The notes: a model not told the origin generated them from the letters alone. A DNA stretch of 64,000 nucleotides from an uncultured Verrucomicrobiaceae bacterium (GCA_937983425.1 CALJZZ010000122.1:99285-163284), one strand, 5' to 3'. Counted from the first letter of the stretch, positions 10,873-44,317 are shown. Program-made: numbers and translations.

Positions 10873-10944
10873 GGACGAAAAAGGCGGGGTTTGGCCTAAA
10901 AAACGGGTCATCTGACCTGAATGGCAAGAAAATGCAGCTTTGCG

Positions 10945-11400: not shown

Positions 11401-11540
11401 GGTGGAGGCTGGAACGAGCGGGCCAAAGCGGGTCTGACAGGGGACTGGTGGCGCAAGGACGGACTTTTGATGCTCCAGCACCTACGGCGGGCCTGCATCT
11501 CGCTGCTTGAGACGGTCCTGGCATGGACGTAGGATGCCGC

Positions 11541-11759
11541 ATGAACACCGAACCTCCAGCCACAACCAGCCAGCCCGTCTCCGCCGAGGTGGCGGAAATG
11601 GCGCGCCAGGCGGTGCGGGACTTTCATGAGTGCTTTTGGTGGTGGAACCCCGACTTCACTCCGCAGACCGTGGAGGAGGTGCGCGAGGTGGTGCTGAATC
11701 TCCGCAAAGGGGGCCACCGTGCCTGGCAGCGGGCTCAGGAACTCAACTCATGCCTTTAA
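11541..11759 (+). CDS. small Trp-rich protein, candidate partner/antitoxin of the downstream nucleotidyltransferase
   Basis: MNTEPP...RDFHECFWWWNPDFTPQTVEEVREVVLNLRKGGHRAWQRAQEL. The stop at 11757-11759 overlaps the next start (11750) by 10 nt. An alternative start is at 11523. Confidence 0.5.
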   Translation: MNTEPPATTSQPVSAEVAEMARQAVRDFHECFWWWNPDFTPQTVEEVREVVLNLRKGGHRAWQRAQELNSCL

Positions 11760-19798: not shown

Positions 19799-21033
19799 GC
19801 GCCACCCGCATTTCCATCCATCTCATCAGCGTCGCCCTGCTGCTCCTGTGGAGCGCCGTGCTGCTCTACTTTTACGCCACGGGGCGCATCGCTCAGTATC
19901 TGCCGGGCGATGGCATCTTCCGGCCCATGGTGCTGGTCTCCGGCATCGGGCTGGCCGTGCTGGCGCTGTTCAATCTGCTGACGGCGGGAGCCGAGGACGC
20001 GGGCTGCGAAGGGCACGACCATGGCGGCCATGACCACAATCACGGCCATGATGACTGCTGTCATGGTCATTCCCACGCCAAAACCAGCCCCTGCGGTCAC
20101 AACCACCCGCATCATGCGCACGAAGGCCCGTGCGATCACGAGCACCCGCATCACGCGCATGAAGGCCCGTGCGATCACGAGCACCATCATGAGCACAGCA
20201 ATCACGCGCCAAGCTGCCACGGGAATGACCACACGGAGAAGCCTTCCGCATGCGGCCACGAGCATCACGCTCACGAAGGATGCGGTCACGAGCATCATCA
20301 CGCCGGCGGGCATTCCCACGGCCACGGCCTGCTGGAGGAAAGCTCATGGCCCGGGCGCGTCACCGCCATCCTCATCCTCGCCGCGCCCATCACCTGGGCG
20401 GCCTTTCAGACGCCGGACAATTACAGCGCCAATGCCGTCATCAACAAGGGCCTCTACAACCCCAACTACAACAGCACCGCCAACGCGGACAAATTCTCCC
20501 TGCGCACCGACACGACAAGCGCGGCCGCCAAGCCTGCGACAGCGGAGGCACCAACACCCGCAGCCACCGCCTCCGCCCCGCAAACAGCCGCCGCCGCGGA
20601 TGGGAAACAGCCGCAGAGCTACGGCAGCTTCACTCTGGAAGACCTCAAACAGCAGGTGCCGCAAAGCAAGGAGGGCAACTTCATGCTCGACGTGCCCGAA
20701 ATCCACTATACCGGCGGCGACATCGAAGTGCAGACCGTGCTGACCGGGCAGCCGGTGGAAACCATTGCCCAGGTGCTGCCGGAAAAGGTGAAAAACGACG
20801 ATGGCCGCCGCCTGCGCATCTTCCGAATGCTGGTGCAGTGCTGCGCGGCGGACGCGCGGCCGTATTCCGTGCCGGTGGAGTTCGAGCAAAAAGCCCCCGA
20901 CTTCAAAGACATGACCTGGGTTAAAGTCACCGGCATCGTAAGCTATGAAAAGGACGGTTCGCAGACCGTTCCCGTGCTCAAGGCCACCAGCATCGAGGAG
21001 ACAACCGCGCCGGAGAACACCATGATCTATTGA
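19795..21033 (+). CDS. DUF1980/TIGR03943-like membrane protein with 108-aa His/Cys-rich loop
   Basis: Two N-terminal TM helices are followed by CEGHDHGGHDHNHGHDDCCHGH...GHSHGHG. A third TM helix and a C-terminal soluble domain follow. It is the usual partner of DUF318 permeases (family name recalled). Confidence 0.7.
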   Translation: MSATRISIHLISVALLLLWSAVLLYFYATGRIAQYLPGDGIFRPMVLVSGIGLAVLALFNLLTAGAEDAGCEGHDHGGHDHNHGHDDCCHGHSHAKTSPCGHNHPHHAHEGPCDHEHPHHAHEGPCDHEHHHEHSNHAPSCHGNDHTEKPSACGHEHHAHEGCGHEHHHAGGHSHGHGLLEESSWPGRVTAILILAAPITWAAFQTPDNYSANAVINKGLYNPNYNSTANADKFSLRTDTTSAAAKPATAEAPTPAATASAPQTAAAADGKQPQSYGSFTLEDLKQQVPQSKEGNFMLDVPEIHYTGGDIEVQTVLTGQPVETIAQVLPEKVKNDDGRRLRIFRMLVQCCAADARPYSVPVEFEQKAPDFKDMTWVKVTGIVSYEKDGSQTVPVLKATSIEETTAPENTMIY

Positions 21034-30321: not shown

Positions 30322-30339
30322 ACGGCGCAGACGGTGGTA

Positions 30340-30609
30340 TTGCATAAAGCCCTCTTTATGAGTGTCTTATATTGTTTCACGGACATTTATTTCGAAAGAA
30401 TTCGATAATCAGGGGTGACACTCAATTCGCCAATTCCAGCGACATTGGTAGCATGGCAAGAGCGAAACATCTCAGATGTGAAGCGATTTTCCATCTGATT
30501 TCTTACCAATACCAAGCCAATGACTTATCCATTTGCTATAATTTAGTCGCATTATTAAAAAAACGAGAATTTTTGTTTGCGCAATTGATAATCAAAGGAG
30601 AGAATTGCG
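30340..30609 (+). promoter_or_regulatory. AT-rich island with extended -10-like TGCTATAAT (30534-30542) and SD AAAGGAG (30594-30600) ahead of the pilin operon
   Basis: Base composition drops sharply compared with the flanks. The palindromes TTTCGAAA and GAATTC are present. The SD lies 9 nt before GTG 30610. Confidence 0.4.
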
Positions 30610-31071
30610 GTGTGGATTATAAATTCCACATTCACTATGAAAACACACATCAATCGCACAAACAACACTCGTCTCGCCAAGCGCCTCAACGCCTCCGGGA
30701 TGACTCTCATCGAAATCAGTCTGGTGATCGCCCTCCTTCTGGGATTGATCGCTGTCGTCTTCCTCGGCCTTGGCACCTACCGTGCCGGCGCTGACAAGGC
30801 GAAATGCAAAATGCAGCTCGCCGCTGTCCAAAAAGCCGTCCGCGCCGGAGCCAACTTCCAGAACCTCGACATCGGGGCCGATCTGGAGAGCACCGATGTC
30901 TTCGGTGCCGGCCTGCTTATGGAAAACGAGCCCGCCTGCCCTTCCGGTGGTGAATACGCCTGGGAAGCCACCGTCCCCGCAGTCGGCACTCCCTACGGCA
31001 ACTGCGACTTTGAAGGCACGGGTGCCACGTCCACCCATGTGCTGGTGGAAGCTGACACAACAGATTGGTAA
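30610..31071 (+). CDS. prepilin-type N-terminal cleavage/methylation domain protein (major pilin/pseudopilin candidate)
   Basis: ...KRLNASG|MTLIEISLVIALLLGLIAVVF shows the class III signal (G-1, E+5). A GTG start at 30610 has an SD; the alternative ATG is at 30637. Confidence 0.8.
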   Translation: MWIINSTFTMKTHINRTNNTRLAKRLNASGMTLIEISLVIALLLGLIAVVFLGLGTYRAGADKAKCKMQLAAVQKAVRAGANFQNLDIGADLESTDVFGAGLLMENEPACPSGGEYAWEATVPAVGTPYGNCDFEGTGATSTHVLVEADTTDW

Positions 31072-31120
31072 AACACAGATCGGATCCCGGCGTCCCGGCA
31101 ACCATTCCCTCCCGAATTCC

Positions 31121-33007
31121 ATGCTCAGCATCACCGATCCCTGCGAACTCAAGGCGGCTGACATTTACCGTCAGGCGCGCGCGGTGGCATCCAAGACGAG
31201 CAGGGGCACGGACGGGGACTGGTACCGGGAGCCGGACGATCTGGCCTGGCAATGGCACATCTGGTTCGACGGCGGGAGAGAGGTCGCCTCGGCGGCCTTC
31301 TCCCGCCTCGACAACCAGTGGCGGCCCGGACCAGCCCTGCCGCTGGCCAGCCTGACCACGGCGGAAAACGCATCCGAGCTGCTCGGCGAGTTGATTTCCA
31401 CCTCCTATTACAGCCAGAAACCCAAATCCCTGGGAGTCATTCTGCATGTGGCGGATGAGTTTGCCCTCGCGGAAATGGCGCAGACCCTCGAAGCCGCCGC
31501 CGAGGGGGGGGAGGATTTCAAAATTCTCCGCTACAATTTGGTGGACGAGCCGCTGGAGATGCTGGCGGATCGTGAAGTCTCCACCGACACCACCTCCTGG
31601 CGTCTCCTGCCATTCTGGGGCGCGGGTCCCGGCCAGACGCGCTCGGTGGCGATGGCTCTTTCGCGCGCGCGCGAACCCTTTATGCAGAAGCTCATGGCCG
31701 AGGGCGAAAAAATGCGCCTGCCAGTCCGCGTCTCCGTGACCAGCGCGCCTTTGGAGGCGCTGGCCGCCCTGCCCTTGATCCAGCCTGAAGCGCGCGGCGG
31801 CAGGCTGGTCGTCATGCCCTATTTGAAGTACACCGCCGTTTTTGCGCTCAGCCCGGAGGGCGAGCTGCGCGCGGCGCGCAGCCTCTCACACAGGGGCGGG
31901 TCACTCACACCGGCAGGGTTTGGCGACATTTTATGGAACATGGCTGTGGCTGCCGAACTCGCCGGCGCGGACCACGCCGGCAAACCGCGCCTCCTGCTCG
32001 CCTCCTCCAACCAGCGCGCCGTGGAGGCGGCCGCGAAGGATCTCGAGCTTTACTCGCTCAGCCGGCAGGAACTGGAGTGCGAAATTTTGGACCTGGGAAG
32101 CCTGCCGCAGCTCGCCGCCATTCCAGGGAACTTGATGGAACTGATGATTTACGACTCGGCCGCCATTGAGCAGGTGCGCGCTGGTGGAGCGCCTCTGGGC
32201 GGCACTGAAACGTTCCCCGCGCTCTGGCAGGGCTGGGCCGGGCAGAATTTCATGGACCTGGCGCGTCTCGACACGCTCTACCCCACGCTGAGCGACCTGC
32301 GCATGCTGCGCTTCTCCACCTGGTTTGTTGTTCTGCTCGTCTTCACACTCGTCAGCACCGGGGCTTATGGAACCTGGTCGTTGTTCTCCGCCATGAACCA
32401 TCCCTCATGGGAGCTGACGGAGTCGCAGGTCAGCATGACCAAGGCGAAGCACGCCAAGCTCATTGACGAGCAAACCCAGATCCAGCTCACCGAGCAGCTG
32501 CTGCTGCCGCGCTCGCGCGGATGGACCACGCTGGAATTTCTCCTGCAGCTCTTCCCCGAGGACTCGGGGGTCAGGCTGGAAAACTTCAGCTACTCCCTGG
32601 AAGCAGCCCGCTCCGCCGCCTCTTCATCCTCGCGCTCCTCGAAAGGTTCCAAAGGCAAAGGCTCCAAAAACGACGCCACCGGGCTGGTGCGGAACTGGAC
32701 CATCAAAGGCCTCGTCAAACCCAAGGCCCTCGAGTTGCTCAACTCCCTCAACAGCCAGCGCGGCCTCGGAGCCTTCTTCGAGCAGGTGGCCGGAGCCACG
32801 GACGACCCTGGTTTCAAGCCAGACCCGGCCCGCCAAATCACCGTCTCACTCACCCAGGGGCGCAATTCCCGCTATGACTCGCAGGCCACGGCGGCGGACG
32901 CGGCGCGCGATCCCACGCTGGCTTTCCCCTTCAATTTCGAAATCCAGATCTCGCAGACCATCTCTGAAAAAGACACCCTGGCACTGCCTTTGGAAAAGCC
33001 CTTTTGA
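31121..33007 (+). CDS. bitopic assembly protein, PilM/PilN-like by position and topology
   Basis: A ~430-aa cytoplasmic part, one TM helix (FSTWFVVLLVFTLVSTGAYGTW) and a ~170-aa periplasmic part. The first in-frame ATG after the pilin stop is used. The functional assignment is inferred. Confidence 0.55.
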   Translation: MLSITDPCELKAADIYRQARAVASKTSRGTDGDWYREPDDLAWQWHIWFDGGREVASAAFSRLDNQWRPGPALPLASLTTAENASELLGELISTSYYSQKPKSLGVILHVADEFALAEMAQTLEAAAEGGEDFKILRYNLVDEPLEMLADREVSTDTTSWRLLPFWGAGPGQTRSVAMALSRAREPFMQKLMAEGEKMRLPVRVSVTSAPLEALAALPLIQPEARGGRLVVMPYLKYTAVFALSPEGELRAARSLSHRGGSLTPAGFGDILWNMAVAAELAGADHAGKPRLLLASSNQRAVEAAAKDLELYSLSRQELECEILDLGSLPQLAAIPGNLMELMIYDSAAIEQVRAGGAPLGGTETFPALWQGWAGQNFMDLARLDTLYPTLSDLRMLRFSTWFVVLLVFTLVSTGAYGTWSLFSAMNHPSWELTESQVSMTKAKHAKLIDEQTQIQLTEQLLLPRSRGWTTLEFLLQLFPEDSGVRLENFSYSLEAARSAASSSSRSSKGSKGKGSKNDATGLVRNWTIKGLVKPKALELLNSLNSQRGLGAFFEQVAGATDDPGFKPDPARQITVSLTQGRNSRYDSQATAADAARDPTLAFPFNFEIQISQTISEKDTLALPLEKPF

Positions 33008-33015
33008 TCCCGGTC

Positions 33016-33576
33016 ATGAGCGCCTACTCCCAGCCCATCATCCGATTCGGCCTCGTCACCCCGGCTGTGTTCAACGTGCTCCTTCTCGGCGGAGTGCTCG
33101 CGGCGCTCGGCAAGCTGGCGGACATCCGCAAGGAGAAGGAGGAGCGCTTTGAAGAGCAGACCCAGCGGCTGGCCGCCATGAAAAAGCTCGAGGCCGACAT
33201 CGCCCCGAAACGCAAGACTTTCGCCGACCAGAAAAAGCTGCTCGAAACCGATCCGGGCCAGCTTTTCACCCGTGTCCTGGACGCCGTGCTGCCCAAGTTC
33301 AAGGAGATCGAACTGGCGCGCGGCAGCCTCGTCTTTCCGCTCGACCGCGGGCGCGTGGCGCGCCCATTGAGAACCGACGCCGCGCGCGTCAAAAGCAGCT
33401 TCTCCGGAGGCTTCGGCCCCATGCAGGAGGCCCTGCTCCAGGTGGAGTCCCTCATGCCCCAGGCCGTGCTCGAGGACATGAAAATCACGCGCAAAGCGCA
33501 CCTGCTCACCCAGCAGGAGCACCTTGTCATGGAAATGACGCACACATGCTGGAAAGCCGGGGAGGCCAAGCCATGA
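33016..33576 (+). CDS. bitopic coiled-coil protein, PilO/GspM-like by position
   Basis: TM helix VTPAVFNVLLLGGVLAAL, then a coiled coil (KEKEERFEEQTQRLAAMKKLEADI). An alternative TTG start is at 33004. Confidence 0.5.
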   Translation: MSAYSQPIIRFGLVTPAVFNVLLLGGVLAALGKLADIRKEKEERFEEQTQRLAAMKKLEADIAPKRKTFADQKKLLETDPGQLFTRVLDAVLPKFKEIELARGSLVFPLDRGRVARPLRTDAARVKSSFSGGFGPMQEALLQVESLMPQAVLEDMKITRKAHLLTQQEHLVMEMTHTCWKAGEAKP

Positions 33577-34172
33577 GAACCGCGCTCACAATCATGACCC
33601 TGTTCTCGTTCGCCCTTGGCGCCGGCGCGCAGAAACCCGCGGACGCCAGGCCGAAACGCTCCGCCTTGTTCATCGGCAAAGGCACCGCCTCATGGCTGCC
33701 CTCCGTGGAAATCCTGCCCACCGCGCTGGACATTGAGGCCGCCGCCAAAAACCTCGGCGCGCGCCAGCGCAACCTGGACCCCTTCGGCCTCGCCGTCTTC
33801 CCGCGCGAAGACGCCGCGCCGGCCTTCTTTGACGACACCCTTCGCGAGGCCCCGCGCGTGACGCTGAACCAGGTCCTTCAGTCCCTCAAGATCAACGGTG
33901 TCAATCTCGCGCGGAAAGAGTTCCTCATCGGCGGGCGCAATGTCTTTGAGGGCGACGTCATTGAAATGACCTTCAAGGGGGAGACTTTCCAGGCCCAGGT
34001 CATCGAGGTTGGCCACACCGAGCTGCGCTTCCGCAACCTCCTCCGCGATGAAACCGGCGTTCTCCTCCACTCCATGATCCCCGCGCTGCCGCTGGAGCCC
34101 ATGCACAAGATCGCCTCCCGTCTTGACGGCAAAGTCTCGCCCATGGAGCCGGCCAACCCCAAGTCACCATGA
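33573..34172 (+). CDS. secreted protein, PilP-like by position (precedes secretin)
   Basis: Signal peptide MRTALTIMTLFSFALGAGAQ. ATGA overlaps occur at both ends (33573, 34169). Confidence 0.5.
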   Translation: MRTALTIMTLFSFALGAGAQKPADARPKRSALFIGKGTASWLPSVEILPTALDIEAAAKNLGARQRNLDPFGLAVFPREDAAPAFFDDTLREAPRVTLNQVLQSLKINGVNLARKEFLIGGRNVFEGDVIEMTFKGETFQAQVIEVGHTELRFRNLLRDETGVLLHSMIPALPLEPMHKIASRLDGKVSPMEPANPKSP

Positions 34173-35989
34173 GCGCCCTTTTCACACGATGGATCAGCTC
34201 CAGCCTTGCCAGCCTGCATCTCATGGGCGCGGCGCAGGACCCCGCCGCCACTGGCACCCTGGACGCGGCCTCCCCCGCGGCGGTGGATGTCTCCTCCAGG
34301 CTCGGCGCGGCGGCCTCCACAGTCAGCAGCCTGCCCGCCCTGCCCGACGATGGATACTGGATAGACAACGCCCCCATCAACGAGGTCTTCCAATACCTCG
34401 CCCGCAGCGCCGGACTGCAGTTCTTTCACAACAACGAGCTGGCCACCCCTGCCTTCAATGTCACCGGTCATCTCAAGCTCGACAATCCGCGCCAGCAGAT
34501 GGAGGACCTGGCCCAGGCCTACGGTCTCACCGTTTACCAGCAGCGCTCCACCGTCAGCCTGCTCAATGATGCGCAGCTCTCCAGGCTGCCTCTTGAGGTC
34601 ATGAGTTATGAGCTCAAATACCTTCGCGGAGCGCCGCTCAACCGCGCCAACCAGGGCGGAGGAGGAGGCGGCGGCGGTGGAGCCACTGTGGATGGCATGG
34701 ATGGGGGCGGCGGCACGGGTGGTGGAGGCGGCGGATCACAGCAGGCTGACTTTGAGAAACTCAAAGCCATCATCCGCCCGCTGCTCACACGCGAGGTGGG
34801 CCAGATCGAGTTCGAGGAAAAAACCAACACGCTTCTTGTCACCGACAACCAGGTGAGGCTCGAACGCATCCGCGCCCTGCTCGCCCAGCTCGACAAGGCC
34901 AAGCAGCAGATCCTCGTCAACGTCCGCGTGCTGCGCATCAAGCGCAACGACGCCCGCCGCGCCGGCATAGACTGGAGTCGGGCGCTTGGCGACACGGGCA
35001 CCACCATCACCGCCTCGCAGAGTCTGAATGCCCTCTTCAACCTGCCTGACATCAGCACCATCACACGCTCCGGCGCGCTGCCCAATCCCACGACCAGCAT
35101 CAACAAGGTCAACACAGACGGCATCGGCCTCGTCTTTGGCAATCCCCAGGTGCAGGCCATCCTGCGCGCCCTGGAGGAAGCCGACATCGTCAGCCAGGAA
35201 GCATGCCCAACCATCATCACCGAGGACAACGAGCAGGGCACCATCTCCATCGTGGACCGCTTCCCGGTCATCACCGCCAACGTGACAAACAGCGGCGCGG
35301 GAGTGCAGAACATCAGCGAACTCGTCCGCTACCAGATTGACGAAAAGGATCCGGACCCCACCACAAACCCCGAAAAGAGCCGCGAGATCGGCGTCACCCT
35401 CTCCGTCACGCCCACCCTCCTGCCGGACGGCACCGTGCGCATGAAGCTGCGCCCGCGCGTGGCCAAGATCGTCGAGCTCGTCGCCGGCCAGGGCGGCAAT
35501 GTGTATCCGCGCGTCAGCGAGTCCACTGTAGAGGCCATCAGCCGCATCCCGGCCGGACAGTCGCTCTTCCTCGGCGGCTTCTATGACTACAGCGGCTCGG
35601 AGGGCGAGAACAAGGTGCCCGTGCTTGGCAGCATCCCCGTCATCCGCAAACTGTTCAGCACCGAGCAGAGGAAGCTGGAGCAGGTCAGCCTTGTCTTCAT
35701 CATCACCCCCCAGATTTATGATGCCTCAAACGCGGCCGAACTGCCCGGCGTGAACTGGCAGATGCGCGAGTATTCAGCCATGCAGCCCGAGGACATCGCG
35801 GATTCCGGGCTTTCCCTCACCGGAGATGGCGGCGGGAACCAGGGCCTTGCGGCCAGGGCCGCCCTTCCGGCGTCCGCGCCCAGGGAGTCGTGGCTCCGGC
35901 GCGTCTTCACCAAAAAGTCATCACCCGCCATGGTGCAGTCTCCGGCGGCAGGTCCGTCCGGCACTCATGGCGGAGCCCCCTACCGCTGA
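34169..35989 (+). CDS. secretin (GspD/PilQ family) with poly-Gly insertion
   Basis: C-terminal secretin signature VPVLGSIPVIRKLFSTEQRKLEQVSLVFIITPQI; N-domain-like repeats are present. Confidence 0.85.
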   Translation: MSALFTRWISSSLASLHLMGAAQDPAATGTLDAASPAAVDVSSRLGAAASTVSSLPALPDDGYWIDNAPINEVFQYLARSAGLQFFHNNELATPAFNVTGHLKLDNPRQQMEDLAQAYGLTVYQQRSTVSLLNDAQLSRLPLEVMSYELKYLRGAPLNRANQGGGGGGGGGATVDGMDGGGGTGGGGGGSQQADFEKLKAIIRPLLTREVGQIEFEEKTNTLLVTDNQVRLERIRALLAQLDKAKQQILVNVRVLRIKRNDARRAGIDWSRALGDTGTTITASQSLNALFNLPDISTITRSGALPNPTTSINKVNTDGIGLVFGNPQVQAILRALEEADIVSQEACPTIITEDNEQGTISIVDRFPVITANVTNSGAGVQNISELVRYQIDEKDPDPTTNPEKSREIGVTLSVTPTLLPDGTVRMKLRPRVAKIVELVAGQGGNVYPRVSESTVEAISRIPAGQSLFLGGFYDYSGSEGENKVPVLGSIPVIRKLFSTEQRKLEQVSLVFIITPQIYDASNAAELPGVNWQMREYSAMQPEDIADSGLSLTGDGGGNQGLAARAALPASAPRESWLRRVFTKKSSPAMVQSPAAGPSGTHGGAPYR

Positions 35990-35995
35990 ACCCGC

Positions 35996-36583
35996 ATGGT
36001 CGCCGAAGCAGTCAATGGCATTCCCCTCTCCGCCACCGTTCCCGGACTCTCCGACATCCGGCCGGTGCTGGAGCGCATCGCCGTCACATGTGTCAAGCAT
36101 CTGCGCCTCGGCGGCTACCTTTCAGAAGCCGAGGCCGCCTTGCTCACCTCCTCCTACCGCGAAAGCATCTGCCGCCCGTCACCCCCTCAGGACGCTCTCA
36201 TCTTCATCGCCGAGACCCAGGCGGAAAAGCACTCCCTCACTGTCGAGGGCGAGGTGCTGCGCATGCAGAAAATCCTCCGCGCCAGCCTCAGCGACCGCGT
36301 CCACTACTGGAGTTTCGGCCCCCTGCCCGGCCGGGCGGACGCGCTTTACGAGCACTGCCCCGCCCTGCGCCCCATCTGCGGAGCCCTCGGCTGCCCCGCC
36401 ATCATGGCCGGCGAGACCAGCATCGTGCATGTGGCATCCATCAACCCCGTGGCCGCCACCGTAGCCTCCTTTTGGATCGGCCACGAACTCAACCGCGTCA
36501 CTGCTGGAGACTCGCCTTTCGTCTTTTCCTTCCTCACCGACCTGGCCTCCTGGAGCCAGCTCATGCAGCGCCACTTCGCATGA
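35996..36583 (+). CDS. stand-alone protein whose C-terminal half resembles a GspE/MshE N-terminal (T2SSE_N) domain
   Basis: ALGCPAIMAGETSIVHVASINPVAATVASFWIGHEL resembles the '...ll.vamadP.d......l...l' pattern. Its stop overlaps the ATPase start (ATGA at 36580). Confidence 0.45.
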   Translation: MVAEAVNGIPLSATVPGLSDIRPVLERIAVTCVKHLRLGGYLSEAEAALLTSSYRESICRPSPPQDALIFIAETQAEKHSLTVEGEVLRMQKILRASLSDRVHYWSFGPLPGRADALYEHCPALRPICGALGCPAIMAGETSIVHVASINPVAATVASFWIGHELNRVTAGDSPFVFSFLTDLASWSQLMQRHFA

Positions 36584-38271
36584 ATCTCAACCTCGGCATC
36601 GAGTTCAACGACACCATCCAGCGGCTCATCGTCGGCCAGCTGCGCAGCTCCATGGCCGCGCAGGAAGGCGTGAGCGACGAGGCTCTTGTGCGCAAGTCCT
36701 CCAAGACCCGCATTCTCGGCGCCGTGGGCCGCGCATCCGGCCTGCCCGCCTTCCCGCAGGTGCGTGATCTCGTGGACCAGGAGTTCGTCGGCTATTGCGA
36801 CCCCGCCGTGCTTTCCCGAGGAATGTTCGTGCCCCTGCGCCGCAGCCCGAAGCAGATTCTACTCGCTGTGGCCAACCCCTGGGATTACCGCGCCGACGAC
36901 TACTGCGCCGCGAGGTTTCCGGACGACGAGGTTTTAAAAGTCGTCACTCTTGCCTCCGAAGTCTCCTCCGTCATCGAAGGCTCGGCCAGCTCCTCCGGCC
37001 CCAGCCGCGCCGAACTCGAGGCCGTGGAAGTCGAGGAATTCTCCAACGAGTGCCCCGACTTCGATGTCACCCGCCAGCACGAGGAACCCATCGCCCAGCT
37101 CGTCTCCAGCATGGTCTCCGACGCCATCAAGCAGCACGCCTCCGACATCCACATCAAGACCGAGAAGACCCTCTTTCAATATTGCTTCCGCATTGACGGC
37201 GACCTCGGCGCGCGCGTGGACATGCCCATGAAGCTGCGCGACCGCGTGGACGCCTTTATGCTCAACCTCATGCGCCTCGCGCCCGAGGAGCGCAACAAGC
37301 GCCCCGGCATCTCCGGGCGCTTCACCGCCAGCTACTACGGGCGCGCCGTCGGCGTGCGCTACGAGCGCCACCGCACCTACCGCGGCTACCACGTCACCAT
37401 GCGCCTGCTGGACAAGACGCATCTCGAGGCCCGCCTCGGCATGGGCACCCTGGCCTTCGACAAGGAGACGCTCTTCGAACTCGACAAGGCCATGGCCGTG
37501 CCCTCCGGCATCATTGTCATGTCCGGCCCGACAGGCTCCGGCAAATCCACCACGCTCAACGCCATGCTGCGCGAGCTCAACCACCCCGAGGACAACATCC
37601 TCACCCTCGAAAACCCCGTCGAGGATGAGATCCCAGGCGTCACCCATTGCGACCTGCGCAACTCCTCCGAGTTCAAGCCCATGATCTCCAGCTTCATGCG
37701 CTCGGACCCCGACATCATCCTCATGGGCGAGGTGCGCGACTACGAGTCCGCCGAACTCGCCATCGAGGCCGCCATCACCGGCCACAAAGTCCTCACCACC
37801 ATCCACACTCCGCGCGCCTCGCAGATCATCGAGCGCTTCCAGCAGCTCGGCATCGAGCGGTGGAAGATCGCCCAGACTCTCAAAGCCGCCTGCGCCCAGC
37901 GCCTCGTCAAGCTGCTCTGCCCCGCCTGCCGCGAGCGGCGCGACGGCGTCCCCGAGCGCGAGATTCGCCTCTTCCACCTCGACCCCTCGTGGGCCGCGCG
38001 CCCCGTCTTTGTCCACCGCAAAGAGGGCTGCCCCGAATGCAAAGGCCGCGGCTACTCGGGCCGCACCGCCATTCTCGAAATCCTGCCCATCAGCCCGAAA
38101 ATCGGTGACAAGCTGGCCAAAGGCGAGATCACCCCCTTTGAACTGGAGCTGGAAGTGCGCCGGGAAAGCAATCTGCCCTCCCTCCGCGACAACGGCCTCA
38201 AAATCATGGCCGAAGGCAAGACCGACCTCGACGCCCTCAAGAAGGTGCTCGACATGACCTATGACTCGTGA
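36580..38271 (+). CDS. type II/IV secretion ATPase (GspE/PilB family)
   Basis: Walker A GPTGSGKST, Walker B IILMGEVRD, His box GHKVLTTIHT, and tetracysteine CPAC...CPEC. Its own N1E-like domain reads ILLAVANPWD. Confidence 0.92.
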   Translation: MNLNLGIEFNDTIQRLIVGQLRSSMAAQEGVSDEALVRKSSKTRILGAVGRASGLPAFPQVRDLVDQEFVGYCDPAVLSRGMFVPLRRSPKQILLAVANPWDYRADDYCAARFPDDEVLKVVTLASEVSSVIEGSASSSGPSRAELEAVEVEEFSNECPDFDVTRQHEEPIAQLVSSMVSDAIKQHASDIHIKTEKTLFQYCFRIDGDLGARVDMPMKLRDRVDAFMLNLMRLAPEERNKRPGISGRFTASYYGRAVGVRYERHRTYRGYHVTMRLLDKTHLEARLGMGTLAFDKETLFELDKAMAVPSGIIVMSGPTGSGKSTTLNAMLRELNHPEDNILTLENPVEDEIPGVTHCDLRNSSEFKPMISSFMRSDPDIILMGEVRDYESAELAIEAAITGHKVLTTIHTPRASQIIERFQQLGIERWKIAQTLKAACAQRLVKLLCPACRERRDGVPEREIRLFHLDPSWAARPVFVHRKEGCPECKGRGYSGRTAILEILPISPKIGDKLAKGEITPFELELEVRRESNLPSLRDNGLKIMAEGKTDLDALKKVLDMTYDS

Positions 38272-38274
38272 GCC

Positions 38275-39492
38275 ATGAACGCCTTCCAAGTCACCCTCCG
38301 CCACAGCGAGCGCCCGGACCTCTCCAGAGTCCTGGAAATCGAGGCCCCCAACCGCGAGCAGGCTGCCGCGCTCGCCGCCAAACCCGGCTTCCGCGTAGCC
38401 CTCGTCAAGCCGCTCAAAGGCGTGAAAAAAAGCGGCCGCGCCAAAGGCGGCATCCCGCGCAAGGAGCTGATCAAACTTTTCCGCGGCCTTGCCTCGATGC
38501 TCAAGGCCAACATCAGCACCTCCGACGCCCTGCTCTACTACGCACAGGGCCTGCCCGACCCCGCGCTTCAGGCCGCCTTGATGAACATCCGCAACCGGCT
38601 TGAGGCCGGCATCCCCGTCCAGGCCGCCTTCGCCAAGGAGCAGTGCTTCGACAGCACCATCATCACCATCATCGAGGCCGGCTCGGACTCCGGGCAGCTT
38701 GGCGACGCCTTCAGCTCCCTGGCCCGCCGCATCAAGATCGAGATGATGTTCGCCAGCAAGCTGCGCTCCGCCCTGCTTGTGCCCTCCATCATCATCCTCT
38801 TTCAGATCGGCCTCTTCATCTACTCGCAGGTCTATGTCGTCGCCCAGGTCGAGGACACCCTCAAAAGCGTGCGCCAGGAGCCGGACGCGCTCTCCCAGGT
38901 CATCTTTTCCATCAGCCATTTCGTGCAAAAAGTCTGGCCCTTTTTTGTCATCGCACTCACCTCCTTTCTCGTCTCCATCTTCCGCTCCGCCCCCCTGCGC
39001 CAGCGGCTGCTCATCTTCCTCATGGGCCGCTGGACGCTTTTGAAAAAGCTCGTCATGGGCCTGCGCCAGAGCGCGTGGATCGGCACCCTCCAGATGCTCT
39101 ATGCCAACGGCATCAACCTCGCCCGCGCCTCCGCCCTCTCCGCCCGCGTGCTCGCCGGCACGCCCATGTACGAGGATTTCATCAAAGCCTCCACCACCTA
39201 TGAGTCCTCCGGCGTGCCCTTTGCCGAATCACTCAAGCGCCACACCGAACTCGATCCCCAGGTCATCCACATGATCGGCATCGGCGAGCGGTCAGCCTCC
39301 CTGCCCCAGCAGCTCGAGCTCCTGCGGGACATCTACGAGGAGGACACCGCCGCCATCATGTCCGACTTCACCCAAGTCATCAATTTCGTCACCCTCGCCA
39401 TGGCCGTCGTGCTCATCGGCTTCGTCTTCACCGGCTCCATGCTGCCCATCTTCCTCATGGGCCCGCGCATGATGCAGTCCGGCAACATGTGA
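38275..39492 (+). CDS. type II secretion F-family platform protein (GspF/PilC)
   Basis: Two T2SSF repeats (LFRGLASMLKANISTSDAL...; ...LQMLYANGINLARA...) and three TM segments. Confidence 0.88.
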   Translation: MNAFQVTLRHSERPDLSRVLEIEAPNREQAAALAAKPGFRVALVKPLKGVKKSGRAKGGIPRKELIKLFRGLASMLKANISTSDALLYYAQGLPDPALQAALMNIRNRLEAGIPVQAAFAKEQCFDSTIITIIEAGSDSGQLGDAFSSLARRIKIEMMFASKLRSALLVPSIIILFQIGLFIYSQVYVVAQVEDTLKSVRQEPDALSQVIFSISHFVQKVWPFFVIALTSFLVSIFRSAPLRQRLLIFLMGRWTLLKKLVMGLRQSAWIGTLQMLYANGINLARASALSARVLAGTPMYEDFIKASTTYESSGVPFAESLKRHTELDPQVIHMIGIGERSASLPQQLELLRDIYEEDTAAIMSDFTQVINFVTLAMAVVLIGFVFTGSMLPIFLMGPRMMQSGNM

Positions 39493-39504
39493 CCCCTGAA
39501 CCCT

Positions 39505-39921
39505 ATGAAAATGCACATCCTCATCCTCGCACTCGCCGCCTCAGCCGCATGGGCTGACCCGACTCCGCGACTCGTGCCGCGTCCCATCCCCGGCATGGTC
39601 CATGCCCCGCGCCCCGCCAGCACCCAGGTCGTGCGCAGGGACGGCGCGCCGGCAAAAGCCGCCGGTGCCAGCCAAGGCGTGCCTTCCGTTGAAGCGGCGC
39701 GCATCGTCTTCATCCACCGCGCCGCCACCCTGCCACCGGAGTTGCGTCTTGTGGAAAAACCTCGGCGCCCTGAACCCGCCGCCACTGCGATCAAACCCGT
39801 CATTCAGGAACGGCCCGGAAAATTGCGCATCATCCCGCAAAGCGAAGCCGCCGCTCTCGCAGCCCTCGCAGAAAAACCCGCCGCACTCACCGCCCATGAA
39901 CCCTCGCCCGACAAAGACTGA
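39505..39921 (+). CDS. secreted Pro/Ala-rich hypothetical protein
   Basis: Signal peptide MKMHILILALAASAAWA. It lies inside the operon and overlaps the next gene by 26 nt. Confidence 0.5.
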   Translation: MKMHILILALAASAAWADPTPRLVPRPIPGMVHAPRPASTQVVRRDGAPAKAAGASQGVPSVEAARIVFIHRAATLPPELRLVEKPRRPEPAATAIKPVIQERPGKLRIIPQSEAAALAALAEKPAALTAHEPSPDKD

Positions 39922-40306
39922 CTCCACCCGCCGCGGCTACAGCCTCCTTGAGCTCAGCCTCGTCATGGCCCTGCTCCTGGGTCTGAGCACCTTCGCCGGG
40001 CTGACCGTCTCCTCCATCCGCGACTGGCAGCGCGGCAAGGATGCCTCCCTCTCCCTCCAGGCCGTCTTCGCCGCCCAGCGCGCCTGGATGGCCGACCACC
40101 CCACCGGCGACATCGAACTGGTCAGCTCCGCGCAATTGCAGACTTACCTGCCGGAAGGCTGGTATGCCATGCCAGCCTTTGTCAGCCTATCGGGCGAGTC
40201 GCTCACACTCGACTACAATGTCATGCCCCCGCTCCTCTACACCAGCGGCGTCGTTTATGATCCCTCCGGCGCCCCCGATGATGGATTATGGGATGTTGGC
40301 AAATGA
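39896..40306 (+). CDS. prepilin-type N-terminal cleavage/methylation domain protein (minor pseudopilin)
   Basis: ...STRRG|YSLLELSLVMALLLGLSTFAGL (G-1, E+5). Confidence 0.8.
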   Translation: MNPRPTKTDSTRRGYSLLELSLVMALLLGLSTFAGLTVSSIRDWQRGKDASLSLQAVFAAQRAWMADHPTGDIELVSSAQLQTYLPEGWYAMPAFVSLSGESLTLDYNVMPPLLYTSGVVYDPSGAPDDGLWDVGK

Positions 40307-41010
40307 CAGAAACCCGTGATAGTACTCCCATGTCTGAACAACCCGCTCTGACAATCCCCGCCGGCACCCGCTTCGGCTATCGTGAAGGTCCCCTCTGGCA
40401 CCGCAGGCAGCGCTGCCTCGTCGAGACTCCGCAGGATGTAGTCACCGGTCCCGGCCTGCATCTGCTCGTGGCCCCGAATGGCTCCGGAAAAACCACGCTG
40501 CTGCGCACCCTCGCCGGCCTTCTCCCAGCCTTGAGCGGTTCCGTCAACGCCGGCGGGCACGTCTACTACTTCTCCGACGAGTTGCGCGCCGACTCGGAAC
40601 TCAAACCGCGCACACTCTTCCGCTCCCTGCTGAAAAACGGCGCGCTCGCCATGGCCGAGGAGCTGGCCGAAACCCTGCGTCTGGATTTGAACCGGCCCAT
40701 CGGCCAGCTCTCCCGCGGCAACCGCCAGAAAGTGCTGCTCATCCTCGCCGAGGTGAAGGTGGCGCACGAAAACGCGGGCGTGCTGCTCATGGACGAGCCT
40801 CTCACCGGCCTCGACGCCGAGACCCGCGCCCAGATGACCGCGCTCTGGTCCTCCGCACAGACAAAGGCCGTCCGCCTCGTCATCCTCCACGAGTTGGAGT
40901 CCGTGCGCCACGCCGACTCCCTGCTCTCCATCCACGGCGGCAGGCTGGCCCATGCGCGTGAAAAGAGCGGCGCCACCTGGCTCGACACTTACCACTCCCT
41001 CCAGTCATGA
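40303..41010 (+). CDS. ABC transporter ATP-binding protein
   Basis: Walker A APNGSGKTT, signature LSRGNRQKV, Walker B LLMDEPLTGLD. The ATG at 40303 overlaps the pseudopilin stop (ATGA). Confidence 0.88.
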   Translation: MTETRDSTPMSEQPALTIPAGTRFGYREGPLWHRRQRCLVETPQDVVTGPGLHLLVAPNGSGKTTLLRTLAGLLPALSGSVNAGGHVYYFSDELRADSELKPRTLFRSLLKNGALAMAEELAETLRLDLNRPIGQLSRGNRQKVLLILAEVKVAHENAGVLLMDEPLTGLDAETRAQMTALWSSAQTKAVRLVILHELESVRHADSLLSIHGGRLAHAREKSGATWLDTYHSLQS

Positions 41011-41777
41011 AATCCCTCCCCCTCCTCCGCATGAGCCTGGCCGGACTGATGAGCCGCAGCAGTTGCTGGCTGCTGCTCGGCGGCGCGCTCGTCTTCGCAT
41101 GGCTCGCTCCGCTCGTCACACCCTGGCAGGAAAATCCCCAGATCCTCCAGCCCGCGCGCGCCCAGGCCGCGTGGGTCTTCGCCTGGCTCGCCCTCTTCAC
41201 CTGGCTGCCCTTCCAGGCCGCCGCGCTTGGCCGCCGCCTGAGGGTCGAGGGAATGCTGGAGCACCTGCGCTCAGGCGGCCGCCGCGCCTGGAATCTCTGG
41301 CTCCAGCTCGGCTCCGCCGTGCTCCTCTGGATGCTCGCCGTGGCCGTCATCGCCGCGCTTGTCTGTGTCGTCTTCTGCCTGCCTCAGCGCGCGGGCGAAG
41401 GCGCGCTCTGGACGCAGCTCGTCCTGCAATACACAGCCCTTTACTTCATCTGCGCCGCCCCGCTCGTCCTGCTCGCCGCCGCGCTTGGCACTCGCACCGC
41501 CGAGGTCATCGCCTTCCTCGTCCCGGTGGCCCTGCTATTCACCGGCCTCTTTGGCGCCGCCTGGCTCGCACCCATGCTCGGCGGCTCATCCTCCAGCCTC
41601 ATCCAGACGCTCTGGCTCGCCGTGCCGCATTATCATCTGGCGGACCTCACCCCGCGTCTTGTCTTCAAAATGGGACCGCTCCCCTCGGCGGACTTCCTCG
41701 CCACCCTCGGCGGTCTCACCCTCCAGGGCGCGGCTCTTTCCCTCCTCGGACTATGCGCCTTCCGCACACGCTCCTGA
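41007..41777 (+). CDS. ABC-2-type (NosY-like architecture) polytopic membrane permease
   Basis: About six hydrophobic segments. The ATGA overlap with the ATPase gene is at 41007. Confidence 0.6.
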   Translation: MKSLPLLRMSLAGLMSRSSCWLLLGGALVFAWLAPLVTPWQENPQILQPARAQAAWVFAWLALFTWLPFQAAALGRRLRVEGMLEHLRSGGRRAWNLWLQLGSAVLLWMLAVAVIAALVCVVFCLPQRAGEGALWTQLVLQYTALYFICAAPLVLLAAALGTRTAEVIAFLVPVALLFTGLFGAAWLAPMLGGSSSSLIQTLWLAVPHYHLADLTPRLVFKMGPLPSADFLATLGGLTLQGAALSLLGLCAFRTRS

Positions 41778-44317
41778 CGCTCGCCTGTGCTGCGGGACTT
41801 TTTTGGGCGGGTCAGAGCATGACCGGCCCGCGAGCCGCCGTCACAGACATGACCAATCCCCTCGGCCTCGCCGGCAGCGCCTTCGGCAGCCTGGCCGCGC
41901 GCGTCATCCGCGACTCCCTGCACAGCTACTGGCACGGCGGCCAGAGCGCCGCGCAGAGCAGCCATGACAAAACCACGAAGGAACAGGCCAAAACACCAAC
42001 ACCAGAACCGCCCGGCATCTTCGCGCGCCGTTCCAAGCCTGCCCCCCCCGGAGAGAACGTCTCATGGCTCGATAAACAGATCGTCCGCCTCGCCGAACTC
42101 GAGGCGGGACGCACCAAGCGCAACAGCCCCTTTCCCACCTCCGACGCCCACCGCCGCTTTCTCAACGCCTCCGCCAGTTGGCGTCTGCGCATCGCCTACG
42201 AACTCGATCCCGGCGACCCCGTGCTTTACGAGATCCTCCACTACCAGCTCGCCGCCCGCCTGGCCGAAAAACCGGAGACACGCCAGGAGCTCGACGCCCT
42301 CGCAGAGCGCGCCATCACCCACGGCACCGCCCCCATGTCCGGCCTCAATGCCGCCCTCGCCGGAGCCGGAGCCGCCCTCAACCTCCTCAACGACCTCCTC
42401 CGCCCCGGCCAGCCCAAGCGCGACGACGACGCCATCATCCGCCGCTGGGGCCAGCTCGACCGCTGCCTCGCCCGCTACCGCGCCATCCGGCACGACGCCG
42501 TCGAATCCGGCTGGTGGTCCGGCATTCCCGAAGTCCGCCAGCAGGAGCTGGAGCAGCACGCCGCCTTGCTCGGGCGCATCGCCGAAAAAATCCGCCTCCA
42601 GCTCCCCGCCGCCCGTCTCACCGTCCAGATCCAGCACCGCTGGCACGGCGCGCCCCTGCCGCTTGCAAAGCCCGGCCTCCTCAACGCCGCCGGAGACAAG
42701 CTCAGCGTCACCCGCCTCGCCTACCTCCTCTCCAAAGCCATGCTCCGCACCGAAAGCGGCGAGTGGATCAGCGCCGGCGACTGGTTCGCCTTCCTCGACG
42801 TCGAAAAAGACCGCACCCACTTCACCCTGCCACGCGTCCCGCGCGGCAGATACACCGCCCTGCGCTTCGATCTCGGCCTCGACGAGCAGACCGACAAGTC
42901 CGACCCCGCCCGCTGGCCCGCCGGCCATCCCCTGAACCCCGACCTCAACGCCCTGCACTGGAGCTGGAAAGACGGCTACGTCTTCCTCGCCATCGAAGGC
43001 CACTACGAGCGCCCCGGAGAAAACCCCGGCGGCTACTCCTACCACCTCGCCGGCCAGGACTGCGCCGGCACCATCGAGGTCCCCGTCGAGATGGACCTCA
43101 ACGGCGACCTCCGCCTCACCCTCGCCTTCGACACCGAGCGCGTCTTCGCCGCCGCGCACACCATCCGCATTCCCGACTCCGACTCCACCCACTCCCATGA
43201 CGACGGCGGCCTCGCCGCGCGCATGGCTGACAACGCCGTCCAGGCCTTCGCACTCCTCGGCATCCAGCCCGACCTGCAAAACACCGGCCCCGCCGAGCTC
43301 GTCGGCAGCGTCAACGCCCCACCCACCCTCGCCAGCCACGTCCCCCCGCATTTCCCGCTCACCGCCTGGCCGGAGGACAACATCCCCACCCCGGATGGCG
43401 TCAGCCTTGGCCGCCGTCTCTTTGAGGACAAGCACCTTTCCATCAACAACACCCAGTCCTGCTCCTCCTGCCACCACCAGCAGGCCGCCTTCGCCGAACC
43501 GCTCGCCACCAGCACCGGCGCCCAGGGCCAGACCGGCGCGCGCAACGCCATGCCCCTTTTCAATCTCGCATGGAAGCCCTCCTTCTTCTGGGACGGCCGC
43601 TCCCCCACCCTGCGCGACCAGGTCCTCCGCCCCATCCAGGACCCCCTCGAAATGAACGAAACCCTGCCCGGCGTCATCGCCAAGCTGCGCGCCGACCCCG
43701 GCACCCTCGGCGACTTTGAAAAAGCCTTCGGCACCCGCGAGATCACCCCCGAGCGCATCGCCCTCGCCCTCGAGCAATTCCTCCTCACCTTCATCTCCGG
43801 CCAGTCCAGGCTCGATCTCGCACGCGCCGGCAAGGCCGAGCTGACCGAGCAGGAGCAGCACGGCTTCCGGCTCTTCTTCACCGAGTCCGACCCCGCCCGC
43901 GGCATTCGCGGCGCCGACTGCTTCCACTGCCACGGAGGCGCCCATTTCACCAACAACCAGTTCCACAACAACGGTCTCGACCCCGATGACCTCATCCGCG
44001 ACATCGGGCGGGAGAAAGTCACCGGCAAACCCGGGGACAAAGGCAAATTCATGACCCCCTCCCTGCGCAACGCCGCCCTCACCGCGCCCTACATGCACGA
44101 CGGCCGCTTCAAGACTCTGGAGGAAGTCGTGGACCACTACGACCGCGGCATCAAAAGCAGCGGCACGCTGGATCCCAACCTGGCCAAACACCTCACGCAC
44201 GGCGGCCTCGGCCTCACCCCGGAGGAAAAAGCCGCCCTCGTCGCCTTTTTGAAAACCCTCACCGACACCTCCTTCACCGAAAAACCCTCCGTCATGGCCG
44301 GAGTCCGGACACAGTAG
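41753..44317 (+). CDS. fusion protein: N-terminal helical domain + MbnP-like (WxW) domain + MbnH-like di-heme cytochrome c peroxidase/MauG-family domain
   Basis: Signal/anchor MRLPHTLLTLACAAGLFWAG from ATG 41753. The MbnP-like core is RYTALRFDLGLD...NALHWSWKDGYVFLAIEGHY. Two heme motifs are present, CSSCHH and CFHCHGG, together with ...PSLRNAALTAPYMHDG. Confidence 0.75.
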   Translation: MRLPHTLLTLACAAGLFWAGQSMTGPRAAVTDMTNPLGLAGSAFGSLAARVIRDSLHSYWHGGQSAAQSSHDKTTKEQAKTPTPEPPGIFARRSKPAPPGENVSWLDKQIVRLAELEAGRTKRNSPFPTSDAHRRFLNASASWRLRIAYELDPGDPVLYEILHYQLAARLAEKPETRQELDALAERAITHGTAPMSGLNAALAGAGAALNLLNDLLRPGQPKRDDDAIIRRWGQLDRCLARYRAIRHDAVESGWWSGIPEVRQQELEQHAALLGRIAEKIRLQLPAARLTVQIQHRWHGAPLPLAKPGLLNAAGDKLSVTRLAYLLSKAMLRTESGEWISAGDWFAFLDVEKDRTHFTLPRVPRGRYTALRFDLGLDEQTDKSDPARWPAGHPLNPDLNALHWSWKDGYVFLAIEGHYERPGENPGGYSYHLAGQDCAGTIEVPVEMDLNGDLRLTLAFDTERVFAAAHTIRIPDSDSTHSHDDGGLAARMADNAVQAFALLGIQPDLQNTGPAELVGSVNAPPTLASHVPPHFPLTAWPEDNIPTPDGVSLGRRLFEDKHLSINNTQSCSSCHHQQAAFAEPLATSTGAQGQTGARNAMPLFNLAWKPSFFWDGRSPTLRDQVLRPIQDPLEMNETLPGVIAKLRADPGTLGDFEKAFGTREITPERIALALEQFLLTFISGQSRLDLARAGKAELTEQEQHGFRLFFTESDPARGIRGADCFHCHGGAHFTNNQFHNNGLDPDDLIRDIGREKVTGKPGDKGKFMTPSLRNAALTAPYMHDGRFKTLEEVVDHYDRGIKSSGTLDPNLAKHLTHGGLGLTPEEKAALVAFLKTLTDTSFTEKPSVMAGVRTQ

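Follow-up and report, generated by a model that had tools for sequence, protein, structure and literature searches.

The stretch of DNA considered here, 64,000 nucleotides (nt) from an uncultured Verrucomicrobiaceae bacterium and referred to below as the window, encodes at positions 30610/30637 to 44317 a run of 13 tightly packed open reading frames (ORFs), all on the plus strand, that belongs to a real, strongly conserved, and undescribed variant of the type IV pilus system. The reading favored here, to which a probability of about 0.6 is assigned, is that of a verrucomicrobial type IV pilus-like operon with a fixed module of three genes, coding for an ATP-binding cassette (ABC) ATPase, an ABC-2-type permease, and a third protein, designated the N-domain (together, the ABC triad). 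The third protein would be a metal-handling periplasmic partner of the machine, which in this genome carries an additional MbnP-MbnH (MbnPH) cassette.

An ATPase-anchored scan of species-representative genomes retrieved 25 loci (labeled L0xx) from Prosthecobacter, Brevifollis, and related metagenome-assembled genomes (MAGs), with P. fluviatilis KACC 12649 and B. gellanilyticus NBRC 108608 among the cultured strains. In each of the relatives sampled (~25 loci, with complete Roseimicrobium and Prosthecobacter genomes among them), the pilus genes lie together with those for the ABC ATPase, the permease, and the N-domain, and this persists down to 61 to 64% identity of the GspE proteins and 26 to 27% identity of the N-domains. 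Loci that span the region retain all 12 genes ahead of gene 13 plus the N-domain, those of Roseimicrobium sp. ORNL1, P. fluviatilis, and B. gellanilyticus included. The order pilin-permease-N-domain is kept in every one of them, likewise in the complete genome of Roseimicrobium sp. ORNL1, and also among the most distant N-domain homologs recovered by word search. In every readable context, the N-domain gene lies within the pilus cluster, directly 3' of the ABC-2 permease gene. The ABC triad occupies the 3' end of the cluster in the Prosthecobacter/Roseimicrobium group and the 5' end in distant marine and uncultured relatives. The order in the latter (L034, L035, and L036) is ABC ATPase, permease, N-domain, PilT-like gene, pilin, genes 2, 3, and 4, secretin, gene 6, GspE, and GspF; L026 shows the distant-type order from the N-domain onward, and its locus ends short of any upstream ABC genes.

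Co-location that outlasts such a permutation of the gene order is good evidence that the ABC triad is functionally coupled to the pilus machine, with which it may also interact physically. The genes flanking the operon vary between loci, and the conserved unit therefore runs from the pilin gene to gene 13. A sequence-only reading of the window had taken the filament and transporter genes for one unit, and as a conserved unit they are borne out by this co-location across rearrangement. The wider linkage that it drew holds for the pilus, ABC, and N-domain genes in all sampled relatives but not for the MbnPH part, which is confined to a minority of the loci (see below). The features of the operon are the following.

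30322 to 30636, plus strand: likely promoter region (putative function), AT-rich intergenic DNA of 315 bp and 38% GC, 5' of the pilin gene
30610 to 31071, plus strand: gene 1, major prepilin; start at GTG 30610 or ATG 30637; cleavage motif G/MTLIE by inspection
31121 to 33007, plus strand: gene 2, 628 amino acids, PilM-PilN fusion type by predicted fold
33016 to 33576, plus strand: gene 3, 186 amino acids, N-terminal transmembrane segment; occupies the PilO/GspM position, identity unproven
33573 to 34172, plus strand: gene 4, 199 amino acids, signal peptide; occupies the PilP/GspC position, identity unproven
34169 to 35989, plus strand: gene 5, secretin, 606 amino acids; Pfam Secretin 113 bits, Secretin_N 40 bits
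35996 to 36583, plus strand: gene 6, conserved protein of 195 amino acids; always directly 5' of the ATPase gene and present in all loci, distant ones too
36580 to 38271, plus strand: gene 7, PilB/GspE-type assembly ATPase, 563 amino acids; Pfam T2SSE 281 bits (cutoff 24.9), MshEN 24 bits
38275 to 39492, plus strand: gene 8, PilC/GspF platform protein, 405 amino acids; Pfam T2SSF in two stretches, 99 bits
39505 to 39921, plus strand: gene 9, Pro-rich protein with signal peptide, 138 amino acids; poorly conserved (33 to 43% identity)
39896 to 40306, plus strand: gene 10, minor (pseudo)pilin, 136 amino acids; cleavage motif G/YSLLE
40330 to 41010, plus strand: gene 11, ABC ATPase, 226 amino acids; Pfam ABC_tran; Walker A, LSRGN signature, Walker B, and H-loop by inspection
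41007 to 41777, plus strand: gene 12, ABC-2-type permease, 256 amino acids; ABC2_membrane_3, E=1.4e-6, 28.1 bits, slightly below the cutoff of 31.6
41753 to 42607, plus strand: gene 13, N-domain, residues 1 to 285, third member of the ABC triad
42608 to 43200, plus strand: gene 13, MbnP-like domain, residues ~288 to 476; Pfam PF20243, 98 bits against a cutoff of 27
43340 to 44317, plus strand: gene 13, MbnH-like di-heme peroxidase domain, residues ~548 to 847; Pfam CCP_MauG (PF03150), 172 bits

The ORF check recovers the 13-gene, single-strand run of the sequence-only reading together with its overlaps of 26 nt at 39896 and 25 nt at 41753. The ATGA tetranucleotides on which it had placed further gene overlaps are present at 33573, 34169, 36580, 40303, and 41007 (gene 4 has one at each end), but the one at 40303 is probably no gene junction. 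Orthologs of the ABC ATPase are 226 residues long in 18 of 19 cases (232 in L018) and start at the equivalent of position 40330, behind an unconserved spacer of 7 to 23 nt; L018 has a 4-nt overlap instead. From the ortholog lengths and the junction alignment, it follows that 40303 is probably not the ABC ATPase start, and gene 11 most likely begins at 40330. This start leaves a 23-nt spacer behind gene 10 and no ATGA overlap, so that the pseudopilin stop does not run into the ABC ATPase start as had been described; the packing is still tight.

The 315-bp region upstream of the pilin gene includes a visible TATAAT-containing stretch and a weak promoter-like match at 30380 to 30409, and an AAGGAG precedes the GTG at 30610. 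The GC content of the window is ~64%. No convincing terminator was found on the plus strand in the interior of the operon, where the sequence-only reading had said that one would speak against a single unit. Judging from this arrangement, the 13 genes are probably co-transcribed. An independent ENA assembly (L001) has this locus too, and its gene calls agree with those made here. An NCBI protein labeled as coming from a Prosthecobacter sp. MAG is 99% identical to the product of gene 13, which places the source among the Verrucomicrobiales. An assembly chimera is ruled out, since the fused gene 13 is found in independent assemblies and samples.

The proteins were compared with Pfam and NCBIfam at their family and equivalog cutoffs and, for genes 1 to 4, 6, and 9 and the N-domain, also with Pfam at E values of up to 10; for these seven, neither database returned anything usable. 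Profiles made from ortholog alignments of genes 2, 3, 4, and 6, the N-domain, and the permease were searched against all PDB sequences, with only chance-level matches for the first five and none for the permease. AlphaFold2 (AF2) structure predictions were made with database homologs, and folds were compared by Foldseek.

Within the operon, the elements expected of a type IV filament system are a PilB/GspE ATPase, a PilC/GspF platform protein, and pilins with a G/xxxxE-type cleavage motif. The secretin, GspE/PilB, GspF/PilC, and ABC ATPase families, as named in the sequence-only reading, all exceed their Pfam cutoffs, and so do the MshEN, MbnP, and CCP_MauG domains. Gene 1 shows a weak N-terminal match to TIGR01710 (GspG; E=0.0096), and its orthologs are 69 to 81% identical in 12 close loci and 42% identical in L026. 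Gene 10 reaches 20 bits with the prepilin N-terminal domain model TIGR02532 (cutoff 16.3) and still has orthologs of 42 to 45% identity in L025 and L026. Gene 7 has an MshEN-type N-terminal domain and, by inspection, a CPAC...CPEC tetracysteine. Gene 5 contains a poly-Gly tract, GGGGGGGGGATVDGMDGGGGTGGGGGGS, between its N-terminal region and Secretin_N (residues ~163 to 192; window ~34650 to 34750). The length of the secretin varies among relatives from 561 to 734 residues.

Gene 2 has no Pfam or PDB sequence match, its ortholog profile included. In the AF2 model (pLDDT 84.9), it is predicted to consist of a cytoplasmic actin-like domain of the PilM/GspL type, one transmembrane helix, and a periplasmic C-terminal alpha/beta domain. 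The best Foldseek match of the model is Pseudomonas aeruginosa PilM (5eou; E=2.6e-8), followed by Thermus thermophilus PilM-PilN (2ych) and EpsL/GspL (1w97 and 4pht). The label PilM/N-like given to gene 2 in the sequence-only reading is thus supported by the predicted fold, but its labels PilO-like, PilP-like, and T2SSE_N-like (genes 3, 4, and 6) amount to position and topology. None of genes 3, 4, 6, and 9 has a Pfam, NCBIfam, or PDB sequence match. Gene 3, which is conserved in all loci compared, has a subthreshold GspM match (17.9 bits against a cutoff of 60), and its PDB profile search came back empty. Gene 4 is kept in the close loci and in L036; no match to it was found in L026 or L034. 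The T2SSE_N-like assignment of gene 6 was dropped, as hhalign comparison with the GspE N terminus gave a probability of 0.07 and there is no Pfam or PDB match. Gene 2, genes 3, 4, 6, and 9, and the N-domain make up about six uncharacterized families that are hereby defined as fixed parts of a pilus system.

Several of these matches bear on whether the machine is a pilus or a type II secretion system (T2SS). All NCBIfam equivalog models of the secretin stay below their cutoffs, with 141 bits for GspD (cutoff 351), 124 for PilQ (284), and 62 for Amuc_1098 (750). The GspE and PilB models are equal at 297 bits for gene 7, both below cutoff (630 for GspE), and gene 8 scores 131 bits with GspF (cutoff 424) and 111 with PilC, again below each cutoff. 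Were the machine a T2SS, its secretin would export the ABC transporter and the N-domain/MbnPH protein, either as cargo or as factors in cargo maturation. This is improbable, even though GspD and GspF score slightly higher than PilQ and PilC and GspE ties with PilB. Gene 2, a single chain of PilM-like domain, transmembrane helix, and periplasmic domain, is also GspL-like in layout, with EpsL/GspL structures among its significant matches; further points of this kind are the faint GspM match of gene 3 and the absence of PilT from the window. However, every equivalog cutoff is missed by a wide margin, the best fold matches of gene 2 are to PilM and not to GspL, GspC-PDZ and the GspH-K set were not seen, and the operon has only two pilin-like genes. 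The transmembrane anchor of the N-domain and its tie to an inner membrane ABC-2 permease are likewise unlike secreted cargo. As for a type IVa pilus, the predicted PilM-like fold and a secretin are seen, genes 3 and 4 are not assignable, and the PilQ score is below cutoff.

The gene neighborhoods of the relatives add to this comparison. A gene of the PilT/PilU family (252 bits; cutoff 319) adjoins the cluster in L011 to L018, L020, L022, L026, L027, L031, L032, L034, L035, and L036. In the Prosthecobacter/Roseimicrobium group, this PilT-like gene and a minor-pilin operon that encodes a protein of 630 to 675 amino acids are often convergent with the cluster and immediately 3' of it; in L034, a TARA marine scaffold, the minor-pilin operon precedes the ABC-pilus block. 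An adjacent PilT/PilU-family ATPase with a minor-pilin set favors a retractile pilus over a T2SS.

This second operon is seen beside the cluster in many relatives, for example, at L022:16047-21672 (minus strand), L032:10920-16771 (minus strand), and L034:3560-8298 (plus strand). In addition to the PilT/PilU-family ATPase and the 630- to 675-residue protein, its products are two pilin-like proteins of ~155 to 176 residues, one of which has the cleavage motif G/SVLVE or G/SALIE, a signal peptide protein of ~360 to 386 residues, and a protein of ~150 residues. None of these genes is found in the 64-kb window.

The closest characterized verrucomicrobial pilus cluster is Amuc_1098-1102 of Akkermansia muciniphila. 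Its five-gene block presumably has the same order as here, i.e., pilin, PilM-like protein, two small proteins, and secretin. This cluster has been described as a type IV pili cluster of five loci in which Amuc_1098 is the secretin PilQ (PMC10688800). It differs from the present operon in that gene 5 falls far short of the Amuc_1098 family cutoff, as given above, and in that no ABC or N-domain module is described in PMC10688800.

The ABC ATPase and the permease point to a different precedent. Orthologs of gene 12 are 31 to 77% identical, including those in L034 and L036. In the near-identical L001, the permease (L001:9273-10025) is 250 rather than 256 residues long and 97.7% identical, an in-frame strain difference of 18 nt. 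In Myxococcus xanthus, the type IV pilus cluster likewise includes the genes of an ABC system, PilGHI, made up of an ATPase, a polytopic permease, and one further protein, and by analogy PilGHI would be the closest functional precedent. Pilus production in Myxococcus depends on each of PilG, PilH, and PilI, to which a role in translocating pilin has been ascribed (PMC3724824 and PMC6060248, citing Wu et al. 1998). PilGHI differs in belonging to another phylum and in having another gene order, and no His-rich, TPR-like (tetratricopeptide repeat-like), or MbnPH partner has been reported for PilG. The sequence-only reading had held the whole combination to be undescribed. An ABC transporter in a pilus cluster has this precedent, but the arrangement as a whole was not found in the literature searched, and a search for accounts of verrucomicrobial pili, PilT, and secretins turned up nothing of relevance.

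Other systems in which an ABC ATPase and an ABC-2 permease work with an accessory protein of the periplasm, and for which no classical transported substrate is known, are NosDFY and GldAFG, which serve metallocenter assembly and motility, respectively. Their accessory proteins have folds unlike the all-alpha TPR-like N-domain, NosD being a beta-helix and GldG of yet another kind. No sequence similarity to these systems was detected; the leading ATPase matches of gene 11 include neither NosF nor GldA, and gene 12 has no NCBIfam match.

The product of gene 13 is a protein of 854 amino acids in three parts, the conserved N-domain, an MbnP-like domain, and an MbnH-like domain. The sequence-only reading had described it as an MbnP/MbnH-like fusion, which is right for both of these domains but passes over the first ~285 residues, a separate conserved domain. 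The predicted layout of the N-domain comprises an N-terminal transmembrane helix, a conserved GSAYGSL...YWHGG motif, a Pro-rich disordered linker, and a TPR-like all-alpha domain (AF2 pLDDT 77, with >90 across residues 140 to 280). Its top Foldseek match, the pilus factor PilW (2vq2; E=0.31, TM-score ~0.2), is a lead and no evidence. The c-type heme motifs of the fused MbnH domain need the periplasm, and therefore the N-domain and its linker should be periplasmic as well. An exhaustive profile search shows that the N-domain family consists of 174 clusters at 50% identity, almost all of which are stand-alone proteins of 280 to 440 residues.

An HD-rich tract in the periplasm is usually the mark of a metal-binding protein, and such tracts occur in this family. 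Among the distant N-domain homologs, 42 of 98 have at least 8 His residues in their best 40-residue window, as opposed to only 1 of the 41 close homologs, which have a Pro-rich linker instead. Five of the His-rich homologs were inspected and contain long HD/HG repeats where the linker lies, immediately behind the WHxG motif. The homolog P0184, from the pilus cluster of L034, has the His/Asp-rich linker stretch HDDHGHDDHGHDDHG. A metal link of the N-domain protein is plausible on these sequence features, and the protein itself may bind metal. This metal connection of the conserved partner protein is a more interesting lead than its coupling to MbnPH. Linkers rich in His and Asp (and, in part, Cys), such as HDHDHDHGHH... 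and HDDHGHDDHG..., were seen in L026:62-1420, P0184, P0188, P0200, P0102, P0109, P0154, and P0163.

The second metal-related part is the MbnPH cassette. The kynurenine-copper chemistry of MbnH and MbnP has been described (PMC11951088), and gene 13 resembles that pair in its Pfam MbnP and CCP_MauG domains, a WxW motif, and two CxxCH motifs. It differs in that both are fused in one chain, together with an unrelated membrane-anchored domain. The WSW motif of the MbnP-like domain is conserved in all long forms and aligns with WNW of MbnP 7l6g, the sole match (E=0.19) of the MbnP-like profile against PDB. The MbnH-like domain has the heme motifs CSSCH and CFHCH by inspection, and its best PDB match is 6e1c (E=7e-49). 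MbnA, MbnB, MbnC, and the TonB-dependent transporter MbnT were found neither among the 12 other operon genes nor among the flanking genes.

Counted over 17 species-level loci, the fused form of 845 to 854 residues is found in 4 (window/L001, L002, L008, and L010), and the other 13 encode a stand-alone N-domain protein of 286 to 310 residues. Sister loci differ by a clean indel of ~1.7 kb that covers exactly the MbnPH coding part: positions 16065 to 17794 of L008 are missing from L028, with flanks that are 82% and 93.5% identical, and the same clean pattern distinguishes L010 from L007. MbnPH is thus an optional, lineage-restricted add-on and no core property of the pilus system, and the coupling of the pilus machine to an MbnPH module, as proposed from the sequence alone, does not hold for the system in general. 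In the operon tree, the fused forms are scattered; the MbnPH parts of the long forms are monophyletic, agree with the operon tree, and nest within short-form MbnP-MbnH fusions (~570 residues) of other Verrucomicrobiales, whose genes adjoin those of YHYH-domain proteins and have no pilus genes nearby. The most economical account is that a paralogous MbnPH gene was fused once, long ago, to the 3' end of the N-domain gene and that the fused part was afterward lost, or exchanged by recombination, on repeated occasions.

These data raise the question of whether the cassette belongs to the machine in function. It might be a common verrucomicrobial MbnPH copy that was fused in frame at the 3' end of the operon and that works as an ordinary periplasmic copper protein, borrowing expression and the N-domain anchor. 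In keeping with this, the 13 loci above lack the cassette, among them sister genomes whose flanking DNA is undisturbed, its place at the very 3' end of the operon is a permissive one, and the short-form MbnPH proteins, 47 to 64% identical, lie beside YHYH proteins away from pilus genes. Such a lack of connection is nevertheless unlikely. The fused ORF has stayed intact, with the WxW and both CxxCH motifs kept, although the operon proteins have diverged to ~65% identity, and the MbnPH tree matches the operon tree; the cassette therefore appears to be under long-term selection where it is kept. In addition, the host protein family has its own His-rich, metal-type linkers, so that two metal-related parts have been joined.

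In the favored reading of a pilus with a metal-handling partner, the pilus genes would assemble a pilin fiber in the usual way, as their family assignments suggest, with genes 3 and 4 as candidate parts of the alignment complex, and the ABC triad, with its anchored TPR-like protein, would form an accessory module comparable to Myxococcus PilH, PilI, and PilG. The periplasmic partner would carry a metal-handling element, which would be either a His/Asp-rich tract, as in the distant homologs, or MbnP-MbnH, as in a minority that includes the source genome; in the Prosthecobacter/Brevifollis clade, the linker of the partner is Pro-rich. The MbnH domain would turn the Trp of the neighboring MbnP domain's WxW motif into kynurenine by oxidation, and the periplasmic copper site so formed would be anchored to the ABC/pilus module. 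A broader and quite speculative extension is that Verrucomicrobiota pili may carry an obligatory periplasmic metal module, consisting of the ABC-2 transporter and the TPR-like protein with an interchangeable metal part (His/Asp-rich in most lineages, MbnP-MbnH here), such that the pilus depends on, senses, or serves copper, zinc, or nickel trafficking. The secretion or uptake route for a metal-handling factor that the sequence-only reading put forward is likewise speculative.

The role of the ABC transporter in pilus clusters (PilGHI) has been unexplained since 1998, and a third transporter component with metal-binding features acquired in two independent ways turns it into a testable hypothesis. 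Cultured carriers exist in Roseimicrobium sp. ORNL1, Prosthecobacter fluviatilis, and Brevifollis gellanilyticus. Gene 13, a fusion of three parts in which nature has joined an MbnP substrate and its MbnH maturase in one chain, could also help in studying the formation of the kynurenine-copper site. If the cassette is incidental, what is left is a pilus operon that is well conserved but ordinary, along with a curious fusion of domains.

A number of observations weigh against the favored reading. With regard to the pilus, no Peptidase_A24 was found among the ~46 window ORFs scanned or annotated, a search that was not exhaustive. This agrees with the absence of PilD/GspO from the window stated in the sequence-only reading, and the gene for the prepilin peptidase may lie in another part of the genome. 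The 64-kb window also lacks PilT and the minor-pilin operon. With regard to the unity of the operon, a weak sigma-70-like match at 40296 to 40323 (TTGGCA, 16 nt, GATAGT; 9/12 consensus) spans the pseudopilin stop and the spacer; it is not conserved at the orthologous junctions and may act as a separate promoter in the source strain specifically. A conserved promoter at the pseudopilin/ABC junction was not accepted, given the short, unconserved spacer and the overlap in L018. With regard to the ABC triad, the likeness to PilGHI is one of gene content and arrangement, not of sequence comparison, and nothing matches the N-domain significantly in sequence or in fold, Foldseek returning weak TPR-type matches only. 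The His-rich tracts could be flexible linkers and no metal sites. With regard to the cassette, the MbnP-like domain scores 36 bits with TIGR04052 (cutoff 140) and has by inspection a single Cys in place of the four-Cys motif, the MbnH-like domain scores 236 bits with TIGR04039, below the cutoff of 362.85, and MbnPH is so often absent that it must be dispensable for the machine.

In other Verrucomicrobiales, at L003:6965-11704 and L005:9143-11689, a short-form MbnP-MbnH gene (~565 residues) lies 3 nt 3' of a gene for a YHYH-domain (PF14240) protein, which in L003 is a sulfatase-YHYH fusion of 1,010 residues. YHYH-MbnPH looks like a conserved pair. In the clade A loci L008:17864-21347 and L028:16124-18929, the genes 3' of the pilus operon are one resembling Fur-family regulators and an operon resembling sufC/sufB/sufD, as assigned by reading N-terminal sequences without a family scan. 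Identity over this stretch is 93.5%, in genomes that share only 82% across the pilus operon. The CAMCWM01 contigs L011 and L029 belong to a MAG labeled "Akkermansia muciniphila isolate ME-08apr19-96" and carry a Prosthecobacter-type operon with 84 to 90% GspE identity; either the name given to the organism or the assignment of these contigs to its bin is probably in error.

In the window, the upstream neighbors of the operon are mreC, PBP2, and RNase G genes along with unrelated genes, and the downstream neighbors are clpS, a PfkB kinase gene, and pyrD. Farther upstream, positions 11630 to 12553 encode a protein similar to AbiEii-type nucleotidyltransferase toxins (Pfam E=4.9e-6), with an ORF of 203 amino acids just 5' of it, and the stretch from 10921 to 12553 may represent a type IV toxin-antitoxin pair. 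At 18800 to 21033, a gene for an ArsP_1-type permease overlaps one for a DUF1980 C-terminal domain protein, a pair that resembles a two-component membrane permease.

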